Assembly: GCA_023429825.1 (NCBI GenBank)
Contig: JAEZDC010000035.1
Span: 3,003-67,002, forward strand
DNA length: 64,000 bases
DNA from: Bacteroidota bacterium
GTDB taxonomy: Bacteria > Bacteroidota > Bacteroidia > Chitinophagales > Chitinophagaceae
Direction of reading: 5' to 3'
The notes below the pieces were generated by a model, which did no database searches, had not been told where the DNA came from, and worked only from the letters and a program-made list of their open reading frames with translations. How positions within the stretch are numbered: the stretch's first letter is position 1; the number at the start of each line of letters is the position of its first letter. Shown here in pieces: positions 2,394 to 55,869 of this stretch. Made by a program: the position numbers and the translations under genes.

Positions 2394-4568
2394 ATGAGAA
2401 TAATTTCTTTATTGATCAGCATTTGTGTGTTTTCTTTTACCAGTGCTCAACAGATCCGATGGGATAAAGATGGTTCTACATACTACCGGGTCGAGGGCGG
2501 TGAGATCATTGAGTATAGTTTGCCTGCTAACACAAGGTCTGTTTTAGTTTCTAAACCAAGCATCACTCCTAAAAATTCAAAAGAAGCTTTGGCTTTTGAG
2601 AATTACATTTTTTCTGCTGATGGCAACAAACTTCTGTTATTCACCAATACAGAGAAGGTCTGGCGGTATAATACAAGAGGAGATTACTGGCTTTACGATC
2701 TCAGCAGTAAATCTCTGATCAAACAGTTAGGTAAAGGAAGACCTGAGTCGTCGATGATGTTTGCAAAATTTTCTCCTGATGGAAAGAAGGTAGCTTATGT
2801 ATCGCAATACAATTTATTTGTTGAGGACCTGGCTTCGGGTAAGATCACTCAGTTAACGCAGGGCGGACATCGCAAACTGATCAACGGAACATTTGATTGG
2901 GCTTACGAGGAAGAATTTTTCTGTAGAGATGGTTTCAGGTGGAGCCCTGACGGAAAAAATATCGCTTACTGGCAAATCGATGCAAGAAAGGTAAAAGATC
3001 ACATGATGATCAATAATACAGATTCGATTTATCCTTCTGTTATTCCGGTTGAATATCCTGTTGCAGGAGAATTACCTTCTCCCTTTAAAATAGGTATTGT
3101 GAATATAAACTCTGCAAAGACCAACTGGATGAACATCCCTTATGATGCAAAACTTGGCTCTTATGCACCCAGAATGGAATGGGCTGACAGCAAAGAGATC
3201 ATATTGCAACACCTAAACAGGAAGCAAAACGAGAGCAGGATCATGCTTGCAGATATCGTCTCAGGCAAAGCCAGAACTATTTACGAAGAGAAGGATGCAG
3301 CATGGATCGATATATTACCGCTATGGGATGCAGACTATTATAACGGTGGATGGGACTGGATCAATAACGGAAAAGAATTCATCTGGGCAAGCGAGAAAGA
3401 TGGATGGAGGCACTTATACCGTGTAACTAAAGACGGTAAAGAAACACTTATTACCAAAGGCAATTATGATGTGATGGATATTTCCACGATCGATGAAAAG
3501 AATAATTACATCTACTTTTTTGCCTCACCGGATAATGCCACCCAAAAATATCTGTATAGAACAAAACTGGATGGTAGTGGAGCTCCTGAAAGAGTCTCTC
3601 CGGCTAATCAAAACGGAACGCACTCATATAATGTGTCGCCTACAGCAGCATTTGCATCGCATAGCTTTACAAATCATTACACACCTACGGCGAGAGAGTG
3701 GGTCTCATTGCCTGATCATAAAGCTTTACTAGGACAAAACCCTGTTAACGATGCGATCGCCAAAGCAGACAAGTCAAAAGTAAATGTGCAGTTTTTTAAG
3801 ATAACCACTGCAGAAGGAGTGGAGATGGATGCATGGGTGAACAAGCCTGCTGATTTAGATTCTACTAAAAAATATCCTGTTGTATTTTATGTGTACACAG
3901 AACCCTGGGGACAGGAAGTAAAAGATCAATACGGCATTGCCAACAATTTTTTATACAAAGGCAATATGAGCCGCGATGGGTATTTCTACATTGCTATTGA
4001 TAACCGAGGTACGCCTGTTCCTAAAGGAAGAGAGTGGCGTAAATCAGTTTACCGGAAGATCGGGCTCGTTAATATCAAAGACCAGGCGATGGCTGCGAAA
4101 GAGGTTTTGAAATGGAATTTCATCGATACCTCAAGAGTAGCTGTATGGGGATGGAGCGGTGGTGGCTCAGCTACATTGAACCTGATGTTCCAGTATCCTG
4201 AGATCTATAAAACCGGCATTTCAGTTGCAGCAGTTGCCAATCAACTCACGTATGATAACATTTACCAGGAGCGCTACATGGGTTTGCCACAGGAGAACCG
4301 GGAAGATTTTCTCGCAGGATCACCACTCACTTATGCGAAGAACTTAAGAGGTAACCTACTGTACATTCACGGAACAGGTGATGACAATGTACATTACAAT
4401 AATGCTGAAATGCTGTTGAATGAACTGATCAAACACAACAAGCAATTCCAATACATGCCTTATCCAAATAGAACGCATAGCATTTCAGAAGGAGAGGGCA
4501 CTTTCCAGCATCTTTCAACTTTGTATACCAACTATTTAAAAATGTATTGTCCGCCGGGAGGCAGATGA
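2394..4568 (+). CDS. dipeptidyl-peptidase IV family serine peptidase (S9B), secreted
   Basis: The ORF begins at a TTG (2376); I prefer ATG 2394 (MRIISLLISICVFSFTSAQ signal peptide). It has a beta-propeller N-terminal part, a GWSGGG nucleophile elbow, and GTGDDNVH and NRTHSI (Asp/His of the triad). Confidence 0.85.
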   Translation: MRIISLLISICVFSFTSAQQIRWDKDGSTYYRVEGGEIIEYSLPANTRSVLVSKPSITPKNSKEALAFENYIFSADGNKLLLFTNTEKVWRYNTRGDYWLYDLSSKSLIKQLGKGRPESSMMFAKFSPDGKKVAYVSQYNLFVEDLASGKITQLTQGGHRKLINGTFDWAYEEEFFCRDGFRWSPDGKNIAYWQIDARKVKDHMMINNTDSIYPSVIPVEYPVAGELPSPFKIGIVNINSAKTNWMNIPYDAKLGSYAPRMEWADSKEIILQHLNRKQNESRIMLADIVSGKARTIYEEKDAAWIDILPLWDADYYNGGWDWINNGKEFIWASEKDGWRHLYRVTKDGKETLITKGNYDVMDISTIDEKNNYIYFFASPDNATQKYLYRTKLDGSGAPERVSPANQNGTHSYNVSPTAAFASHSFTNHYTPTAREWVSLPDHKALLGQNPVNDAIAKADKSKVNVQFFKITTAEGVEMDAWVNKPADLDSTKKYPVVFYVYTEPWGQEVKDQYGIANNFLYKGNMSRDGYFYIAIDNRGTPVPKGREWRKSVYRKIGLVNIKDQAMAAKEVLKWNFIDTSRVAVWGWSGGGSATLNLMFQYPEIYKTGISVAAVANQLTYDNIYQERYMGLPQENREDFLAGSPLTYAKNLRGNLLYIHGTGDDNVHYNNAEMLLNELIKHNKQFQYMPYPNRTHSISEGEGTFQHLSTLYTNYLKMYCPPGGR

Positions 4569-10621: not shown

Positions 10622-10650
10622 AAAAAAAACCCCTCCAGGAGGAGGGGTTT
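10622..10650 (-). terminator. intrinsic terminator of the T9SS cargo gene
   Basis: aacccctcc (10628-10636) pairs with ggaggggtt (10641-10649) across a 4-nt loop. An A8 run on the plus strand is the T-run on the minus strand. Confidence 0.8.
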
Positions 10651-51628: not shown

Positions 51629-52651
51629 ATGACCAAACTAACATACAAATTTTCAACTGCATCAACTGACTTCTACTTCAACAGTAGTTTCTCACTACTG
51701 AAAAAGCGTATCGATCAAAAGAATACAGTTCTTGTTACAGATGAAAATGTTTTCAATGCACACAAGTACAAATTCAAGAACTGGAATACCATAATTCTCA
51801 AACCAGGCGAGCAATATAAGATCCAGCAAACCGCAGATGCAGTTATCGATCAATTAATAGAATTTGAAGCAGACAGAAAAACGATGCTGGTTGGTATAGG
51901 TGGTGGTGTGATCACTGATATCACTGGTTATGTCGCTTCAATATACATGCGTGGAATTCAATTTGGTTTTGTACCAACTACATTATTAGCGATGGTGGAT
52001 GCCAGCATTGGCGGGAAGAATGGAATTGATGTAGGAGAATATAAGAATATGGTGGGCACTATCAAACAACCTTCATTCATCTTACACGATCATAGTTTGC
52101 TTTCATCATTACCGGTTCGGGAATGGCAAAATGGATTTGCAGAGATCATTAAACATGCCTGCATAAAAGATGCGGCTATGTTCAAAGCGCTTGAAGTAAA
52201 TTCTATTAATCAGTATAGAAAGAAAAAACAGTTACAAGCTGAGCTTGTGAAACAAAATGCGTTGATCAAATTAAAAACAGTTCAGAAGGATGAGTTTGAA
52301 CAAGGTGAGAGAAAGCTGTTGAATTTTGGTCATTCGCTTGGGCATGCATTGGAAACACAATATGAGCTTTCGCATGGACAGGCGATCAGTATTGGAATGA
52401 CCTATGCTGCTGAAATATCAGCTAAACTTTTAAACTTTAGAGATACAGAAAGACTTACTTCCATTCTCGAACAATATGGACTTCCAACCTACGCGTCATT
52501 CAATGCGAGGAAAGTATTTGATGTGTTGAAGATGGATAAGAAAAGAGAGAAAAAAGACATCAATTATATTTTGCTGGACAAGATCGGTAAGGCGAAGATC
52601 CAATCAATTCCTTTGAAGCAATTGCAACAATTAATAGGAGGTTTGCAATGA
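51629..52651 (+). CDS. aroB: 3-dehydroquinate synthase
   Basis: I prefer the start at ATG 51629 (MTKLTYKF); upstream ORF codons cover the REP-like element. It has the motifs GGGVITDITGY, ..DASIGGKNG.. and ..NFGHSLGHALE. Confidence 0.87.
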   Translation: MTKLTYKFSTASTDFYFNSSFSLLKKRIDQKNTVLVTDENVFNAHKYKFKNWNTIILKPGEQYKIQQTADAVIDQLIEFEADRKTMLVGIGGGVITDITGYVASIYMRGIQFGFVPTTLLAMVDASIGGKNGIDVGEYKNMVGTIKQPSFILHDHSLLSSLPVREWQNGFAEIIKHACIKDAAMFKALEVNSINQYRKKKQLQAELVKQNALIKLKTVQKDEFEQGERKLLNFGHSLGHALETQYELSHGQAISIGMTYAAEISAKLLNFRDTERLTSILEQYGLPTYASFNARKVFDVLKMDKKREKKDINYILLDKIGKAKIQSIPLKQLQQLIGGLQ

Positions 52652-53988
52652 TCGTGTTGGTGCAACCTTCAATAATTTCAGGGGCACTTCATGCACCGGC
52701 ATCTAAGAGTGCAATGCAACGAGTTTGCGCTGCAGCAGTGATACGAAAAGGACAAACGATCATTCATAATCCCGGCAATTCTAATGATGATAAAGCAGCA
52801 TTGAATGTTATTCAACAGCTGGGAGCAAATGTGGACGAAGTAAGTGGAAAGCTGATAGTGAGTAGTAAAGGCGTATATCCAATTTCAAACACCCTGCATT
52901 GTGGTGAAAGTGGATTAGGCATAAGAATGTTCACACCACTTGCAGCATTAAGCAATAGAGAAATCGCAATTCGCGGTGAAGGCAGCCTCGTTACTCGTCC
53001 AATGAATTTCTTTGATGAGGTGCTGCCTAAACTTGGTGTGTTTATGAGATCAAATGGAGGTAAGCTGCCGCTAATTATCAAAGGGCCATTGCAACCAAGG
53101 ACCATCACTGTTGACGGATCATTGAGTTCTCAGTTTCTTACGGGATTGCTGATGGCTTTTTCTGCTGCCAATGCTTCAGATGTGTCTATTCATGTAACTG
53201 ATCTTAAGAGCAAACCATACATTGACCTCACATTACAGGTGATCAAAGATCTCGGAATGAAATTACCGCAGAATAAAAATTATAGTGAGTTCTATTTTGA
53301 CAATTCTGCTATTCATTCATTTTCAACTATCGACTACACTGTTGAAGGTGATTGGAGTGGGGGTGCTTTTCTTTTAGTAGCAGGTGCTATCGCAGGAAAT
53401 GTTACTGTAAAATGTTTATTAAACATATCAAGACAGGCAGATAAAAGAATAGTGGATGCATTGCTGGATGCAGGTGTAGATGTTACTGTGCGGGAGGATC
53501 AGGTTGAAGTGAAACGAAAAGATCTGCAATCGTTTGAGTTCGATGCAACAGATTGTCCCGACTTGTTTCCACCATTAGTAGCACTAGCAGCTAACTGCAA
53601 AGGCATATCCAGACTAAGAGGTTTAAGAAGATTGAAGCACAAAGAAAGTGACAGGGGAGTAACGCTGCAGGAAGAATTCAATAAACTGAGTACACGCATT
53701 GATCTGGATGGAGATGAAATGATCGTCTACGGCAATGAAAAGATATTCGTCAAGAATCATACACTCAATTCTCATCACGATCACAGAATAGCGATGGCGT
53801 GTGCAGTAGCGTGTTTAAATGCAGATTTTGAAGTGGAGATAAGGAATGCCGATGCAGTAAAAAAATCCTACCCTGATTTCTGGGATCATTTGAAGCAATT
53901 AAAAGCTGGTATATCTTTAAAGCCATTTACTAATGATAGTACATATGACCTCACCCCTAACCCCTCTCCGAAGAAGAGAGGAAGGTAG
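52648..53988 (+). CDS. aroA: 3-phosphoshikimate 1-carboxyvinyltransferase (EPSP synthase) with repeat-derived C-terminal tail
   Basis: An ATGA overlap joins it to aroB. It has ..PASKSAMQR.., ..LHCGESGLGIRMF.. and ..KESDR.. motifs. The last 14 codons (DLTPNPSPKKRGR*) are encoded by the solo repeat copy. Confidence 0.9.
   Translation: MIVLVQPSIISGALHAPASKSAMQRVCAAAVIRKGQTIIHNPGNSNDDKAALNVIQQLGANVDEVSGKLIVSSKGVYPISNTLHCGESGLGIRMFTPLAALSNREIAIRGEGSLVTRPMNFFDEVLPKLGVFMRSNGGKLPLIIKGPLQPRTITVDGSLSSQFLTGLLMAFSAANASDVSIHVTDLKSKPYIDLTLQVIKDLGMKLPQNKNYSEFYFDNSAIHSFSTIDYTVEGDWSGGAFLLVAGAIAGNVTVKCLLNISRQADKRIVDALLDAGVDVTVREDQVEVKRKDLQSFEFDATDCPDLFPPLVALAANCKGISRLRGLRRLKHKESDRGVTLQEEFNKLSTRIDLDGDEMIVYGNEKIFVKNHTLNSHHDHRIAMACAVACLNADFEVEIRNADAVKKSYPDFWDHLKQLKAGISLKPFTNDSTYDLTPNPSPKKRGR
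53947..53988 (+). repeat. solo copy of the DUF559-cassette terminal repeat
   Basis: gaCCTCACCCCTAACCCCTCTCCGAAGaAGAGaGG.. matches 54473-54513 almost base for base. It contains the aroA stop codon (tag, 53986-53988). Confidence 0.75.
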
Positions 53989-54037
53989 AAACGAGAGGCG
54001 GTGTTATTAAAAAGATTTAACCATATAATTTTTACAA

Positions 54038-55564
54038 GTGAACAGTTTCGGCCGAATATTTCGCATCCACATCTTTGGAGAATCACATGGTGAATGTGCA
54101 GGTGTGACTATTGATGGTTGTCCTGCTGGATTACAGTTGTCTGCTGAAGATTTTATTGCAGATTTAGAAAGGAGAAAAGGAGGTCAAAAAAAAGGAACAA
54201 CACCAAGACAGGAAGAAGACCTTCCCATCTTTAAGTCCGGAATATTCAATGATAAAACAACCGGGGCTCCGATAACGATCCTGTTTGAAAACAAAAATGT
54301 TCGTTCTGCTGATTATGAAAAGCAGAGAGATTATCCTCGACCTGGACATGCAGATTTTGTAGCACATGAAAAGTTTGGTGGGTATGAAGATTATCGCGGC
54401 AGCGGGCATTTCAGCGGGAGGTTGACTGTTGGATTGGTAGCGGCTGGGGTGATTGCGAAGAAACTTTTAAAGAACCTCACCCCTAACCCCTCTCCGAAGG
54501 AGAGGGGAATGAGATCCCATTCACCTTTTGGTTACATTACCTCTACACCTGATTCCTATTATCTTTTAAAAGAATTCGCAAAGCAAAACAGGCATAGCCC
54601 CACTGAAGCAGAAGATAAATTGTGGCAATTACTTCGTAACAGAAAGGTTGAAGATGCAAAATTCCGGAGACAACATCCTGTAGCGGGTTTTATTCCTGAC
54701 TTTGTGTGTCTTGAAAAGAAGCTGATCATTGAAATTGATGGCGGATATCATTCACAAGAAGATCAAAAGAAATACGATAATGCCAGAACCGAATGGTTGA
54801 AAGAGCACAACTATCAATTATTACGATTTACCAATGAGGATATCTTAATCCATGAAGAAAAAAGTGTGGATGAGATAAGAAAAGCTTTAAAGAACTTCAC
54901 CCCTAATCCCTCTTCAAAGGAGAGGGAAACGCTTGAAGGATTACCAGACACTGTTTCAAAAACGAGTGCCACCTCTCCCTCTCCCTTGGAGAGGGAGTCG
55001 GAGGGTGAGGTCAACATACAAGCAAATATCTTAGAAATAGGAGGTGAGCAGGATTTAGATAAAGGCCTTCAAAAAGCTATCGATGCCAAAGATTCTATCG
55101 GTGGAATAATAGAATGCAAAGCGTCTGGTTTACCAACAGGCCTAGGTGAACCATTCTTCGATTCAGTAGAATCTCTTATAGCACATATTGTATTTGCTAT
55201 ACCTGCAGTAAGAGGAATTGAATTCGGTACCGGCTTCGCTGCTGCGAAAATGTTTGGCAGTGAACATAATGATGCAATTGTCGATGAAAGTGGTTCCACT
55301 CAAACCAATCATGCCGGCGGAATAGTAGGAGGTATCACCAATGGAAATGAATTGGTATTTCGTGTTGCTATCAAGCCTACTTCATCTACACCTAAACCTC
55401 AGCAAAGTCTCAACTGGAATACAGGTGTTGTTGAAGAGTTCTCTATAAAAGGCCGACATGATCTATGTATCGCTTTGCGGGTACCTGTGATTCTTGAAGC
55501 AGTAACGGCAATTGTATTGGCAGATCTTATGTTAATGGGACAAAGAATACCTAGAATATTATGA
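54038..55564 (+). CDS. aroC: chorismate synthase interrupted in frame by a 179-codon DUF559 cassette
   Basis: GTG start (MNSFGRIFRIHIFGESHG). The AroC motifs are split. RPGHADF and GSGHFSGR lie before codon 146. DSIGG, GLGEPFFD, AVRGIEFGTGF and KGRHDLC lie after codon 324. The ORF is a continuous 508 aa. Confidence 0.85.
   Translation: MNSFGRIFRIHIFGESHGECAGVTIDGCPAGLQLSAEDFIADLERRKGGQKKGTTPRQEEDLPIFKSGIFNDKTTGAPITILFENKNVRSADYEKQRDYPRPGHADFVAHEKFGGYEDYRGSGHFSGRLTVGLVAAGVIAKKLLKNLTPNPSPKERGMRSHSPFGYITSTPDSYYLLKEFAKQNRHSPTEAEDKLWQLLRNRKVEDAKFRRQHPVAGFIPDFVCLEKKLIIEIDGGYHSQEDQKKYDNARTEWLKEHNYQLLRFTNEDILIHEEKSVDEIRKALKNFTPNPSSKERETLEGLPDTVSKTSATSPSPLERESEGEVNIQANILEIGGEQDLDKGLQKAIDAKDSIGGIIECKASGLPTGLGEPFFDSVESLIAHIVFAIPAVRGIEFGTGFAAAKMFGSEHNDAIVDESGSTQTNHAGGIVGGITNGNELVFRVAIKPTSSTPKPQQSLNWNTGVVEEFSIKGRHDLCIALRVPVILEAVTAIVLADLMLMGQRIPRIL
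54473..55012 (+). mobile_element. TIR-bounded DUF559 (Vsr/restriction-endonuclease-like) cassette, about 540 bp
   Basis: The left repeat (54473-54513) carries the hairpin cccctctcc-gaa-ggagagggg (54487-54507). An internal direct copy lies at 54893-54931. The right inverted copy (54968-55012) carries the hairpin ctccctctcc-ctt-ggagagggag (54975-54997). The internal ORF from ATG 54509 has the DUF559 signature (LWQLLRNRK..KFRRQHPV..FIPDFVC..LIIEIDGGYH..LRFTNEDI). Boundaries are good to a few nt only. Confidence 0.6.
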
Positions 55565-55869
55565 TCATCTACCACATCACTTATGCAACAGACTGGGAGC
55601 TGGGGTTAACGCAAGGTTTTTACACAGCCCCCTCTTTACAGGCAGAAGGGTTTATCCATTGCAGCCTGGATAACCAGGTACAAGGTGTATTGGAAAGATA
55701 TTATGCAGGCGAAACCAATCTAGTAAAGCTTGTCATCGATACAGATAAATTAGATCATCAGCCAAAATTTGAATTAGCTCCTTCTGTAAACGAAGACTTC
55801 CCTCATATTTATGGCCCGATCAATTTAAATGCAGTAACAGAAGCGGTGCATTTGGATAAGGGAGAATAA
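55561..55869 (+). CDS. DUF952-family protein
   Basis: 102 aa with ..EGFIHCS......V.......L..ID...L......E......FPHIYGPIN, typical of DUF952. An ATGA overlap joins it to aroC. Confidence 0.78.
   Translation: MIIYHITYATDWELGLTQGFYTAPSLQAEGFIHCSLDNQVQGVLERYYAGETNLVKLVIDTDKLDHQPKFELAPSVNEDFPHIYGPINLNAVTEAVHLDKGE

Follow-up and report, generated by a model that had tools for sequence, protein, structure and literature searches.

The chorismate synthase gene aroC of a Chitinophagaceae bacterium (Bacteroidota; contig JAEZDC010000035.1) contains a 540-nt block that encodes a DUF559 domain and lies in frame within the enzyme. The window, that is the whole 64-kb stretch of this contig that was analysed and to which bare coordinates refer, carries aroC as an open reading frame (ORF) of 508 aa at 54038..55564 (+). 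The block, at 54473-55012, comprises 180 codons, is stop-free and is in phase at both junctions. The reading put forward here, at a probability of roughly 0.68, is that it is a discrete selfish, non-splicing, in-frame nuclease cassette, whose role as a nuclease is predicted. The features of the locus are as follows, with those of aroA, the gene located upstream, at the end.

54038..54472, + strand: N-terminal part of AroC, aa 1-145, ending in the helix ..VIAKKLLK
54473..54509, + strand: left terminal inverted repeat (TIR), translated as NLTPNPSPKERG
54510..54568, + strand: N-terminal linker and lead-in helix of the cassette (MRSHSPFGYITSTPDSYYLLKEF); predicted local distance difference test (pLDDT) score <50 for aa 149-174
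54569..54889, + strand: predicted DUF559 nuclease domain (Vsr-like PD-(D/E)XK fold), aa 178-284, from Pfam and a match to PDB 3HRL
54893..54929, + strand: extra degenerate copy of a left-type end within the cassette (FTPNPSSKERE), lineage-specific
54930..54967, + strand: spacer from the extra copy to the right end (TLEGLPDTVSKTSA); pLDDT <50 for aa 289-323
54968..55012, - strand: right TIR, translated as TSPSPLERESEGEV
55013..55564, + strand: C-terminal part of AroC, aa 326-508, whose first element is the strand NIQANILEIGGE
52648..53988, + strand: aroA (5-enolpyruvylshikimate-3-phosphate synthase) ORF, whose last 13 codons (DLTPNPSPKKRGR) come from a solo cassette end
53948..53985, + strand: solo left-type end, with an outer arm and a decayed hairpin, about 26-27 nt of which are identical to the aroC left end

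Pfam recognises two separate segments of Chorismate_synt in the 508-aa product (E 1e-109); DUF559 covers aa 178-284 (E 1e-32, or 2e-33 for the excised 180-aa block on its own). The product still scores above the cutoffs of the AroC equivalog models (NF003793, 359 bits for a cutoff of 321; TIGR00033, 347 bits for a cutoff of 212). Both AroC halves are collinear with uninterrupted orthologues, and empty orthologues align across the junction. The length of the cassette is a multiple of three, it has neither a start codon nor a stop codon of its own, and the DUF559 domain is its only cargo. ORF, Pfam matches and junctions all agree with the preliminary description of this DNA, which had reported a 508-aa AroC split in phase by a stop-free DUF559 block. 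An AlphaFold2 model of the fusion, built with 23 sequences (mean pLDDT 62.6), puts the insert after helix 124-146 and ahead of strand 326-334, with both linkers at low confidence, in keeping with a loop position. The internal ATG at 54509, put forward at the same time as an alternative start, is not conserved in orthologues, and independent translation of the insert is rejected on this ground.

The core scores 112-115 bits against PF04480 (cutoff 20.6) and covers positions 4-108 of the 109 of the profile. PDB 3HRL, a Neisseria 'endonuclease-like protein' that is its only solved relative by sequence, matches it with E 3e-20. The motifs FRRQH, D-F-x-C and E-x-D-G-x-x-H are all present in the window copy. 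Residues R210, R211, Q212, H213, D221, E232, D234 and H238 are kept in 124-129 of the 129 aroC-borne alleles, and the remaining core positions checked in 121-129 of them. In two close pairs, the ratio of nonsynonymous to synonymous substitution rates (dN/dS) is 0.041 and 0.083 for the core and 0.019 and 0.045 for the host. Strong purifying selection acts on the DUF559 core. In a published classification, a single PD-(D/E)XK group unites Vsr, DUF559, 3HRL and the homing enzyme 3R3P (PMC3424549). The domain is not Vsr itself: the Vsr model TIGR00632 gives 16.3 bits for a cutoff of 97.85 (E 0.009), a resemblance at the level of the fold only.

Cassette ends and their copies

Each end of the cassette is made of a C-rich outer arm and of a hairpin with a C-stem and a G-stem. 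The left end reads AA-CCTCACCCC-TAA-CCCCTCTCC-GAA-GGAGAGGGG, with the outer arm CCTCACCCC at 54475-54483, the spacer TAA and then the hairpin CCCCTCTCC-GAA-GGAGAGGGG at 54487-54507. The right end, CTCCCTCTCC-CTT-GGAGAGGGAG-TCGGA-GGGTGAGGTC, mirrors the left one, its hairpin CTCCCTCTCC-CTT-GGAGAGGGAG being located at 54975-54997 and its outer arm GGGTGAGGTC at 55003-55012. Both inverted repeats reported in the preliminary description were recovered in this way, with perfect hairpins of 9 bp (left) and 10 bp (right). Within the window, these are the only C-run/G-run hairpins inside genes (fold z-scores of -3.4 and -2.4). The left-end 20-mer CTCACCCCTAACCCCTCTCC occurs at 53950, 54476 and 54896 (the last with 3 mismatches) and not once in shuffles. 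Another hairpin, at 10627-10650 (AAACCCCTCC-AGGA-GGAGGGGTTT), is unrelated; it lies between convergent genes and resembles an ordinary bidirectional terminator.

The DNA of the left end is near-invariant across orthologues, yet its translation is LTPNPSPKERG or, after a shift of one base, TSPQTPLQRRG; a third frame (RPHPKHLP) is used by a solo copy inside the aroA gene of locus L009. Three frames are likewise used for the right hairpin (SPSPLERELEGEV, SPLLWRGVGGEV and ALSIGEGLGEV), with a fourth reading, GIGVRS (..GEGIGVRS), in L169. Mean pairwise identities among 15 loci are 73% at all positions and 46% at third codon positions for host aroC, and 65% and 45% for the DUF559 core; at all positions, the 33-nt left end reaches 89% and its three arms only 96%. 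No other DNA of the locus is as well conserved as the ends. In two close pairs, the linkers encoded by the ends have a synonymous divergence (dS) of 0.13 and 0.07, versus 1.59 and 0.36 for the host, and a high dN/dS (0.45 and 0.86). Furthermore, compensatory changes are found in the stems of L005 (T:A to C:G) and L001. The ends are constrained as DNA, not as peptide.

Comparison of L169 (730-1230) with L080 reveals that the right end replaces about seven host codons where the beta-strand begins. Alleles therefore do not all share the same junction positions, as a result either of independent insertions or of later remodelling.

Additional copies of the ends lie in and near the cassette. The third copy announced in the preliminary description does exist at 54893-54929, with 3 mismatches; it is degenerate, lineage-specific and not present in the closest orthologue. 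Just before it lies AAAGCTTTAAAGAAC, a mimic of the host junction AAACTTTTAAAGAAC, and the two make up a direct repeat of 49 nt with 86% identity (54881-54929). This copy could be a duplicated junction or a second, decayed insertion. The upstream solo copy is likewise present, at 53948-53985, with the finer detail that it forms the C-terminus of aroA (..STY|DLTPNPSPKKRGR*), and the gap between aroA and aroC is widened to 49 nt. Orthologous aroA genes end about ..VSLxxKxKFHE and overlap or abut aroC (gap of -8 to +3 nt). The identity of this solo end to the aroC left end suggests that it was recently copied.

An in-frame solo left-end remnant is also carried by the aroA loop SAA|VSI of L076 (2150-2215) and L009 (1520-1610). 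It is read as TSPQTPFQGRGAFEASN in L076 and in the third frame (RPHPKHLPISIGTEGEGLL) in L009. The L009 aroA copy and the left end of the L009 aroC cassette, 1.9 kb apart, have in common the nested palindrome CCCGATA(T/G)CTATCGGG, which suggests that ends of a single genome have been copied from one another or have undergone gene conversion. Other small palindromes separate the outer arm from the hairpin at both L007 ends (3360-3430 and about 4290-4360) and at the L009 left end (3449-3510), and the CCTCAC terminus is in triplicate in L006 (3430-3470). Small insertions or duplications seem to accumulate preferentially at the cassette ends.

Filled, empty and scarred aroC alleles

A protein search revealed at least 120 clusters, 65-79% identical, which belong to Chitinophagaceae or Chitinophagales and share this architecture without exception. 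Among species-representative genomes, scanned with about 7 kb at each locus, 10 loci were filled and 70 lacked the DUF559 core. In the combined alignment of 197 aroC genes, 129 are filled, 56 are clean-empty and 12 have a short or unrelated sequence in the loop. The empty site expected by the preliminary description is thus provided by these 56 clean-empty alleles. The cassette is inserted in the loop that follows ..AKKLL and precedes the strand ..ILEIGGE; the length of this loop also varies among empty alleles, and the cassette is in sense orientation in all 129 filled alleles. Filled and empty states are interleaved on the neighbour-joining tree of the hosts, with about 18 parsimony changes, a rough figure obtained from a tree of 320 aa. 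The preliminary description had also considered an ancestral domain, present in all related taxa without flanking repeats; the carriers of the segment have the repeats as well, and many relatives are devoid of the segment. The aroC insertion is old and widespread in Chitinophagaceae, neither private to the source genome nor a fixed ancestral domain.

Several alleles have kept only parts of the cassette. In the aroC gene of L013 (Foetidibacter luteolus), an in-frame solo palindrome of 51 bp, which is perfect, occupies the cassette site (fold z-score of -6.4). L011 has kept both ends and the last helix and its core is gone, and cassette fragments remain at the aroC site of L012, L064 and L077. 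The last of these shares 98.5% DNA identity with the filled L081 and differs from it by an in-frame deletion of 450 bp, which begins inside the left end and reaches as far as the 3' arm of the right hairpin. L077 is thus a case of recent and viable loss of the cassette.

Cassettes have also been replaced at this site. Overall, host and insert distances are correlated (r = 0.65; Mantel test, 0 of 300 permutations reaching the observed value), and the insert evolves about twice as fast as the host. The aroC parts of P0013 and P0072 share about 98% protein identity, their DNA being mostly 90-100% identical per 60-nt window, whereas DNA identity drops to about 60-82% between the left junction and a point shortly ahead of the right end. 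The left ends of these two cassettes are in different frames, and an 11+1-nt indel pair restores the phase. Synonymous sites of their cores are saturated for a host dS of 0.27 (Fisher p = 2e-22). These cassettes are older than the divergence of their hosts, and cassettes have thus been exchanged in near-identical aroC genes. The opposite pattern is found for L164 and L165 (cassette dS 0.44, host dS 1.59, p = 2e-6), where the cassette is much younger than the divergence of the host gene. At least two cassette lineages, told apart by the frame of the left end and by a conserved extra ..TTGCTCAAA segment, are found at the aroC site, and both of them occur in both aroC subtypes. Site-specific presence/absence with horizontal replacement at one conserved site, as observed for this cassette, is one of the features of homing endonuclease genes.

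DUF559 cassettes in other genes

The combination of end repeats and DUF559, which the preliminary description knew from this one site, is abundant elsewhere. An exhaustive profile search with the 180-aa block led to 21,623 cluster representatives at E<=1e-3. Among the 149 nearest ones, 38 have at least 80 aa of another protein on both sides of DUF559. Hosts found among these nearest representatives are CinA, class I aminoacyl-tRNA synthetases, LeuRS, SpoIIE-type phosphatases, a glycosyltransferase, DNA methylases, HsdS and the Lhr helicase. According to flanking peptide motifs, P0136 carries LTPNPSPKERG and a ..GGEV right end, apparently in MetH, and P0128 and P0176 carry aroC-like right ends in LeuRS, their left ends being beyond the contig edge. 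In the DUF559 family as a whole, many members are free-standing.

A second sample consists of 80 metagenome loci of a different DUF559 subfamily, toward which it is biased. DUF559 lies in sense orientation inside a long open frame, with at least 90 aa open on both sides, in 65 of these 80 loci; it is near the C-terminus of its host in eight, near the N-terminus in three and free-standing in four. The hosts recognised by Pfam or by junction motifs are MetH, MetRS, LeuRS, IleRS, IcmF/MeaB, an epimerase, a DegT aminotransferase, RecG, adenine deaminase, CinA and a MiaB-like enzyme. Within MetH alone, cassettes occupy three sites (L084-L147): one precedes the B12-binding domain, another lies in the AdoMet activation domain and the third is elsewhere (L133).

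The flanks of this second subfamily have the same architecture with other sequences, for example GCCCCCCCACCCCCCGAAGGGGGG, which faces its mirror image across the cassette. The mean inverted-repeat score is 11.7 versus 7.0 in control windows (p = 2e-25, 79 loci), and the mean hairpin stem is 6.3-6.6 bp versus 4.8 bp in controls (p = 2e-36). The flanking of DUF559 genes by inverted pairs, a generalisation raised in the preliminary description, is borne out by this enrichment. Hairpin-type flanks are also found around free-standing copies, in L120 and L162 and, in high-GC DNA, in L170 and L171. These last two are viral contigs (L170:2036-2866 and L171:1412-2866) in which a free-standing DUF559 lies between hairpin-type peptides (..LPLPHTVGERAGVRG.. 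and ..PSPRPSPPLRGGEG..), which extends the association of DUF559 with hairpins beyond Bacteroidota. As only 3 matches to the second subfamily were found among 2.9 million viral contigs, phages are not an obvious main vehicle.

The cassette is a discrete unit. L114 (CinA) and L117 (MiaB-like radical-SAM enzyme) carry cassettes of 531 bp each that are 82% identical with zero gaps. Their homology begins and stops at the ends, the flanks being 38-45% identical, i.e., at the random level. A discrete TIR-bounded unit at unrelated loci is what characterizes inverted-repeat transposons and miniature inverted-repeat transposable elements. The preliminary description did not foresee that the aroC insertion is so old and widespread, nor that it would be one case of a very large phenomenon affecting many housekeeping genes.

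These copies bear on an alternative in which the palindromic end element would be the primary mobile unit, as in Rickettsia, DUF559 being a passenger that homes into palindromes or is mobilised in trans. Solo palindromes or ends are indeed found in frame without DUF559 in the aroC genes of L013 and L012, in the aroA genes of L076 and L009 and at the 3' end of the window aroA. Extra copies of the ends, as well as nested palindromes, originate separately from the core (window 54893-54929, L005, L006, L007 and L009), and the palindrome common to the aroA solo copy and the aroC cassette end of L009 is lineage-specific. Against this, an origin by deletion from a full cassette is demonstrable for several solo forms (L077 compared with L081, and L011), the homology between L114 and L117 covers the whole 531 bp and not only the ends, and the end repeat is found only at or beside DUF559 sites in about 620 kb of Chitinophagaceae DNA instead of being dispersed. 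Such a primacy of the palindrome is unlikely.

Interpretation and relation to known elements

The TIR-bounded selfish element that the preliminary description had proposed, with DUF559 as its only cargo and an internal fusion within AroC, is supported by the filled, empty and scarred alleles, by the conservation of the ends across frames, by cassette replacement and by copies in different genes. In the scheme favoured here, the cassette lies in a permissive surface loop of chorismate synthase, the length of which is naturally variable, and is read through from the host start codon. It would borrow the transcription and translation of its host and would remain as an extra domain in the mature protein, with neither RNA nor protein splicing. 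The C- and G-runs of the ends are nearly stop-free in every frame and would encode flexible Pro/Ser/Gly-rich linkers, so that the same DNA may serve both as element end and as protein linker. As these ends rarely create stops, insertion would need only the right orientation and phase to spare the host enzyme, from whose surface the nuclease domain would then protrude.

The nuclease activity, its substrate and the chemistry of movement are inferences. Selection would keep the nuclease active and the nuclease would promote the spread of the cassette. Two mechanisms may be considered. In the first one, homing, empty alleles would be cut and repair would copy the cassette in from a filled allele; this fits the repeated occupation and replacement at one site. 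In the second one, the enzyme would cut in a structure-specific way at its own hairpin or cruciform ends, for transposition or resolution. More speculatively, the outer arms could pair while each hairpin folds, leading to a junction-like structure whose resolution across both hairpins would leave exactly a solo palindrome of the L013 type. Decay would then proceed through internal deletions, solo palindromes and short scars. Since only in-frame deletions survive in an essential gene, the cassette would be hard to lose, which would also explain the scars.

Various points weigh against this interpretation. Among the alleles compared, no pair that is more than 97% identical shows a clean gain, the nearest clean-empty and filled pairs being 5% apart in protein. 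The target-site duplication that the preliminary description hoped to find in orthologues is not visible at the aroC, CinA or MiaB-like junctions, in a comparison limited to closest empty/filled pairs that are only about 83-85% identical. The positive correlation of host and insert distances suggests that inheritance is mostly vertical. The AlphaFold model of the fusion is only moderate, as its mean pLDDT indicates. The end repeat is rare, with only the aroC and aroA sites in the 620 kb scanned, and the current activity of the cassette may therefore be low. In the literature searched, no nuclease activity or target is reported for any DUF559 protein. Lastly, strong purifying selection on the core would fit a domesticated domain too.

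Such a domestication would make DUF559 a host-beneficial module, for example a repair or defence nuclease tethered to abundant enzymes, now vertically inherited, with the repeats as relics. The near-universal retention of the core motif residues, the correlated distances and the wide retention of the insert in Chitinophagaceae agree with this, yet relic repeats would not remain 96% identical while being read in different frames. Moreover, many close relatives are devoid of the insert, recent deletions are viable, and cassettes are swapped and reside in more than 15 unrelated host proteins that have no functional link. As regards defence, PADLOC gave only a weak DpdF match, which does not support a known defence system. 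Domestication appears improbable.

Even less credit can be given to the idea that the inverted ends serve programmed inversion or excision, as a DNA switch by which the expression of aroC and of other genes would be stopped and restored. Inverted repeats do flank the cassette, and DUF559 domain-containing proteins are enriched (odds ratio 14), without comment by the authors, among predicted targets of programmed inversion, which involves intragenic inverted repeats (PMC9881135). Nevertheless, the antisense strand of the cassette carries stops, with ORFs of 56 and 67 aa only, and inversion would therefore merely truncate an essential enzyme; the cassette carries no recombinase gene, and 129 of 129 aroC alleles and 65 of the 80 other loci are in sense orientation.

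The in-frame position in conserved housekeeping genes, the nuclease cargo and ends that could pair to bring the junctions together would suit an element eliminated on the way to the mature enzyme, be it an intein, an intron or a sequence bypassed in translation, but this is very improbable, as is an assembly artefact: Pfam finds no Hint or intein domain in the 508-aa product; the junctions, KN|LTPNP and GEV|NIQ, are variable among alleles and do not have the Cys/Ser/Thr or His-Asn splice residues; an Rfam scan of 53800-55700 gave chance-level matches only, far below gathering scores, with no intron or ribozyme; and the same structure is found in more than 129 independent assemblies. An intein is rejected on the first two grounds, from which the insert is expected to stay in the mature protein, and a known RNA element (group I or II intron) on the Rfam result and on both junctions being kept in phase. 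The compensating 11+1-nt indels that hold this phase would be unneeded if the RNA were removed, which argues against any removal before translation.

Inteins with homing endonucleases nevertheless offer a useful comparison. Like the cassette, they are selfish and lie in frame in conserved housekeeping proteins (aminoacyl-tRNA synthetases, helicases, metabolic enzymes), they rely on host-gene expression, carry a nuclease, show site-specific presence/absence and decay to remnants. The cassette differs from them by the absence of a Hint domain and splice residues, by the hairpin inverted repeats at its DNA ends and by a DUF559 domain instead of LAGLIDADG or HNH. The Rickettsia palindromic elements of Ogata et al. 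(2000; cited in PMC1779305) are reportedly in-frame palindromic repeats of coding genes, translated as tolerated surface segments. The solo palindrome of L013 and the solo ends of aroA resemble them in behaviour only. These elements carry no gene, whereas a conserved nuclease domain lies between the cassette ends and several of the solo forms were produced by deletion.

REP/RAYT elements (repetitive extragenic palindromes and their associated tyrosine transposases) and IS200/IS605 elements have short GC-rich end hairpins, located on one strand, no target-site duplication and HUH tyrosine transposases. The cassette is similar in its GC-rich end hairpins and in its lack of a visible target-site duplication. 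Unlike them, it has ends that are true inverted repeats, and its sole protein is a PD-(D/E)XK-type domain; according to Pfam, it encodes DUF559 only and no HUH (Y1) transposase. Free-standing DUF559 proteins (E. coli YcjD family PRK09767, E 7e-25; N. gonorrhoeae PDB 3HRL, E 3e-20) have the same domain but are encoded by separate genes with their own start and stop.

The Vsr-like (EDxHD) homing endonucleases, e.g., I-Bth0305I, and the family of 'fractured genes' (PMC2677866) belong to the same structural superfamily and provide a precedent for this fold as a homing nuclease. They are located in group I introns, in inteins or between split-intein halves, and DUF559 is a separate family. The ShiLan domain of an actinophage DNA methylase is a homing-like, non-splicing insertion that is stop-free in the host frame and, like the cassette, is thought to be tolerated as a loop (PMC11855218). 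The HNH nuclease of ShiLan is out of frame with its own start and stop, whereas the nuclease of the cassette is itself the in-frame insert; ShiLan resides in a phage and the DUF559 cassettes in cellular housekeeping genes, on a far larger scale; and hairpin-bearing inverted ends, present in the cassette, are not mentioned in the ShiLan abstract (PMC11855218). As far as that abstract goes, ShiLan (PMC11855218), together with inteins, Rickettsia palindromic elements and Vsr-like homing enzymes (PMC2677866), appears to be among the closest precedents.

Downstream of aroC, a 102-aa ORF at 55561-55869 overlaps its stop by 4 nt. Related loci carry DUF952 at the position of this ORF, and the order aroA-aroC-DUF952 is kept in several relatives.

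A search of 8 million full texts led to no description of DUF559 as a mobile in-frame cassette, in agreement with the preliminary description, whose author was not aware of any. There is an even chance that DUF559 marks an unrecognised mobile superfamily. This would be a third way, beside introns and inteins, for nuclease genes to reside in essential genes; the hairpin ends would be both nuclease sites and frame-independent linkers, and the cassette would be moved by a homing enzyme or by a structure-specific one that cuts at hairpins or junctions. The chance is substantial that the cassette will count as a class of its own when its mechanism has been elucidated. If this reading is true, it would give a biological role to DUF559, a family of more than 20,000 cluster representatives, and would add a route for the persistence of selfish nuclease genes in essential genes, as a translated and tolerated domain that needs no splicing machinery. 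It would also explain oddly long housekeeping proteins of Bacteroidota (AroC, MetH, MetRS, LeuRS, IleRS, RecG, CinA and IcmF) that are now annotated as plain enzymes. The cassettes would form a natural catalogue of permissive insertion loops and any-frame linkers for protein engineering, and the filled, empty and scarred alleles of one gene would be a tractable system for the homing or transposition of PD-(D/E)XK enzymes.

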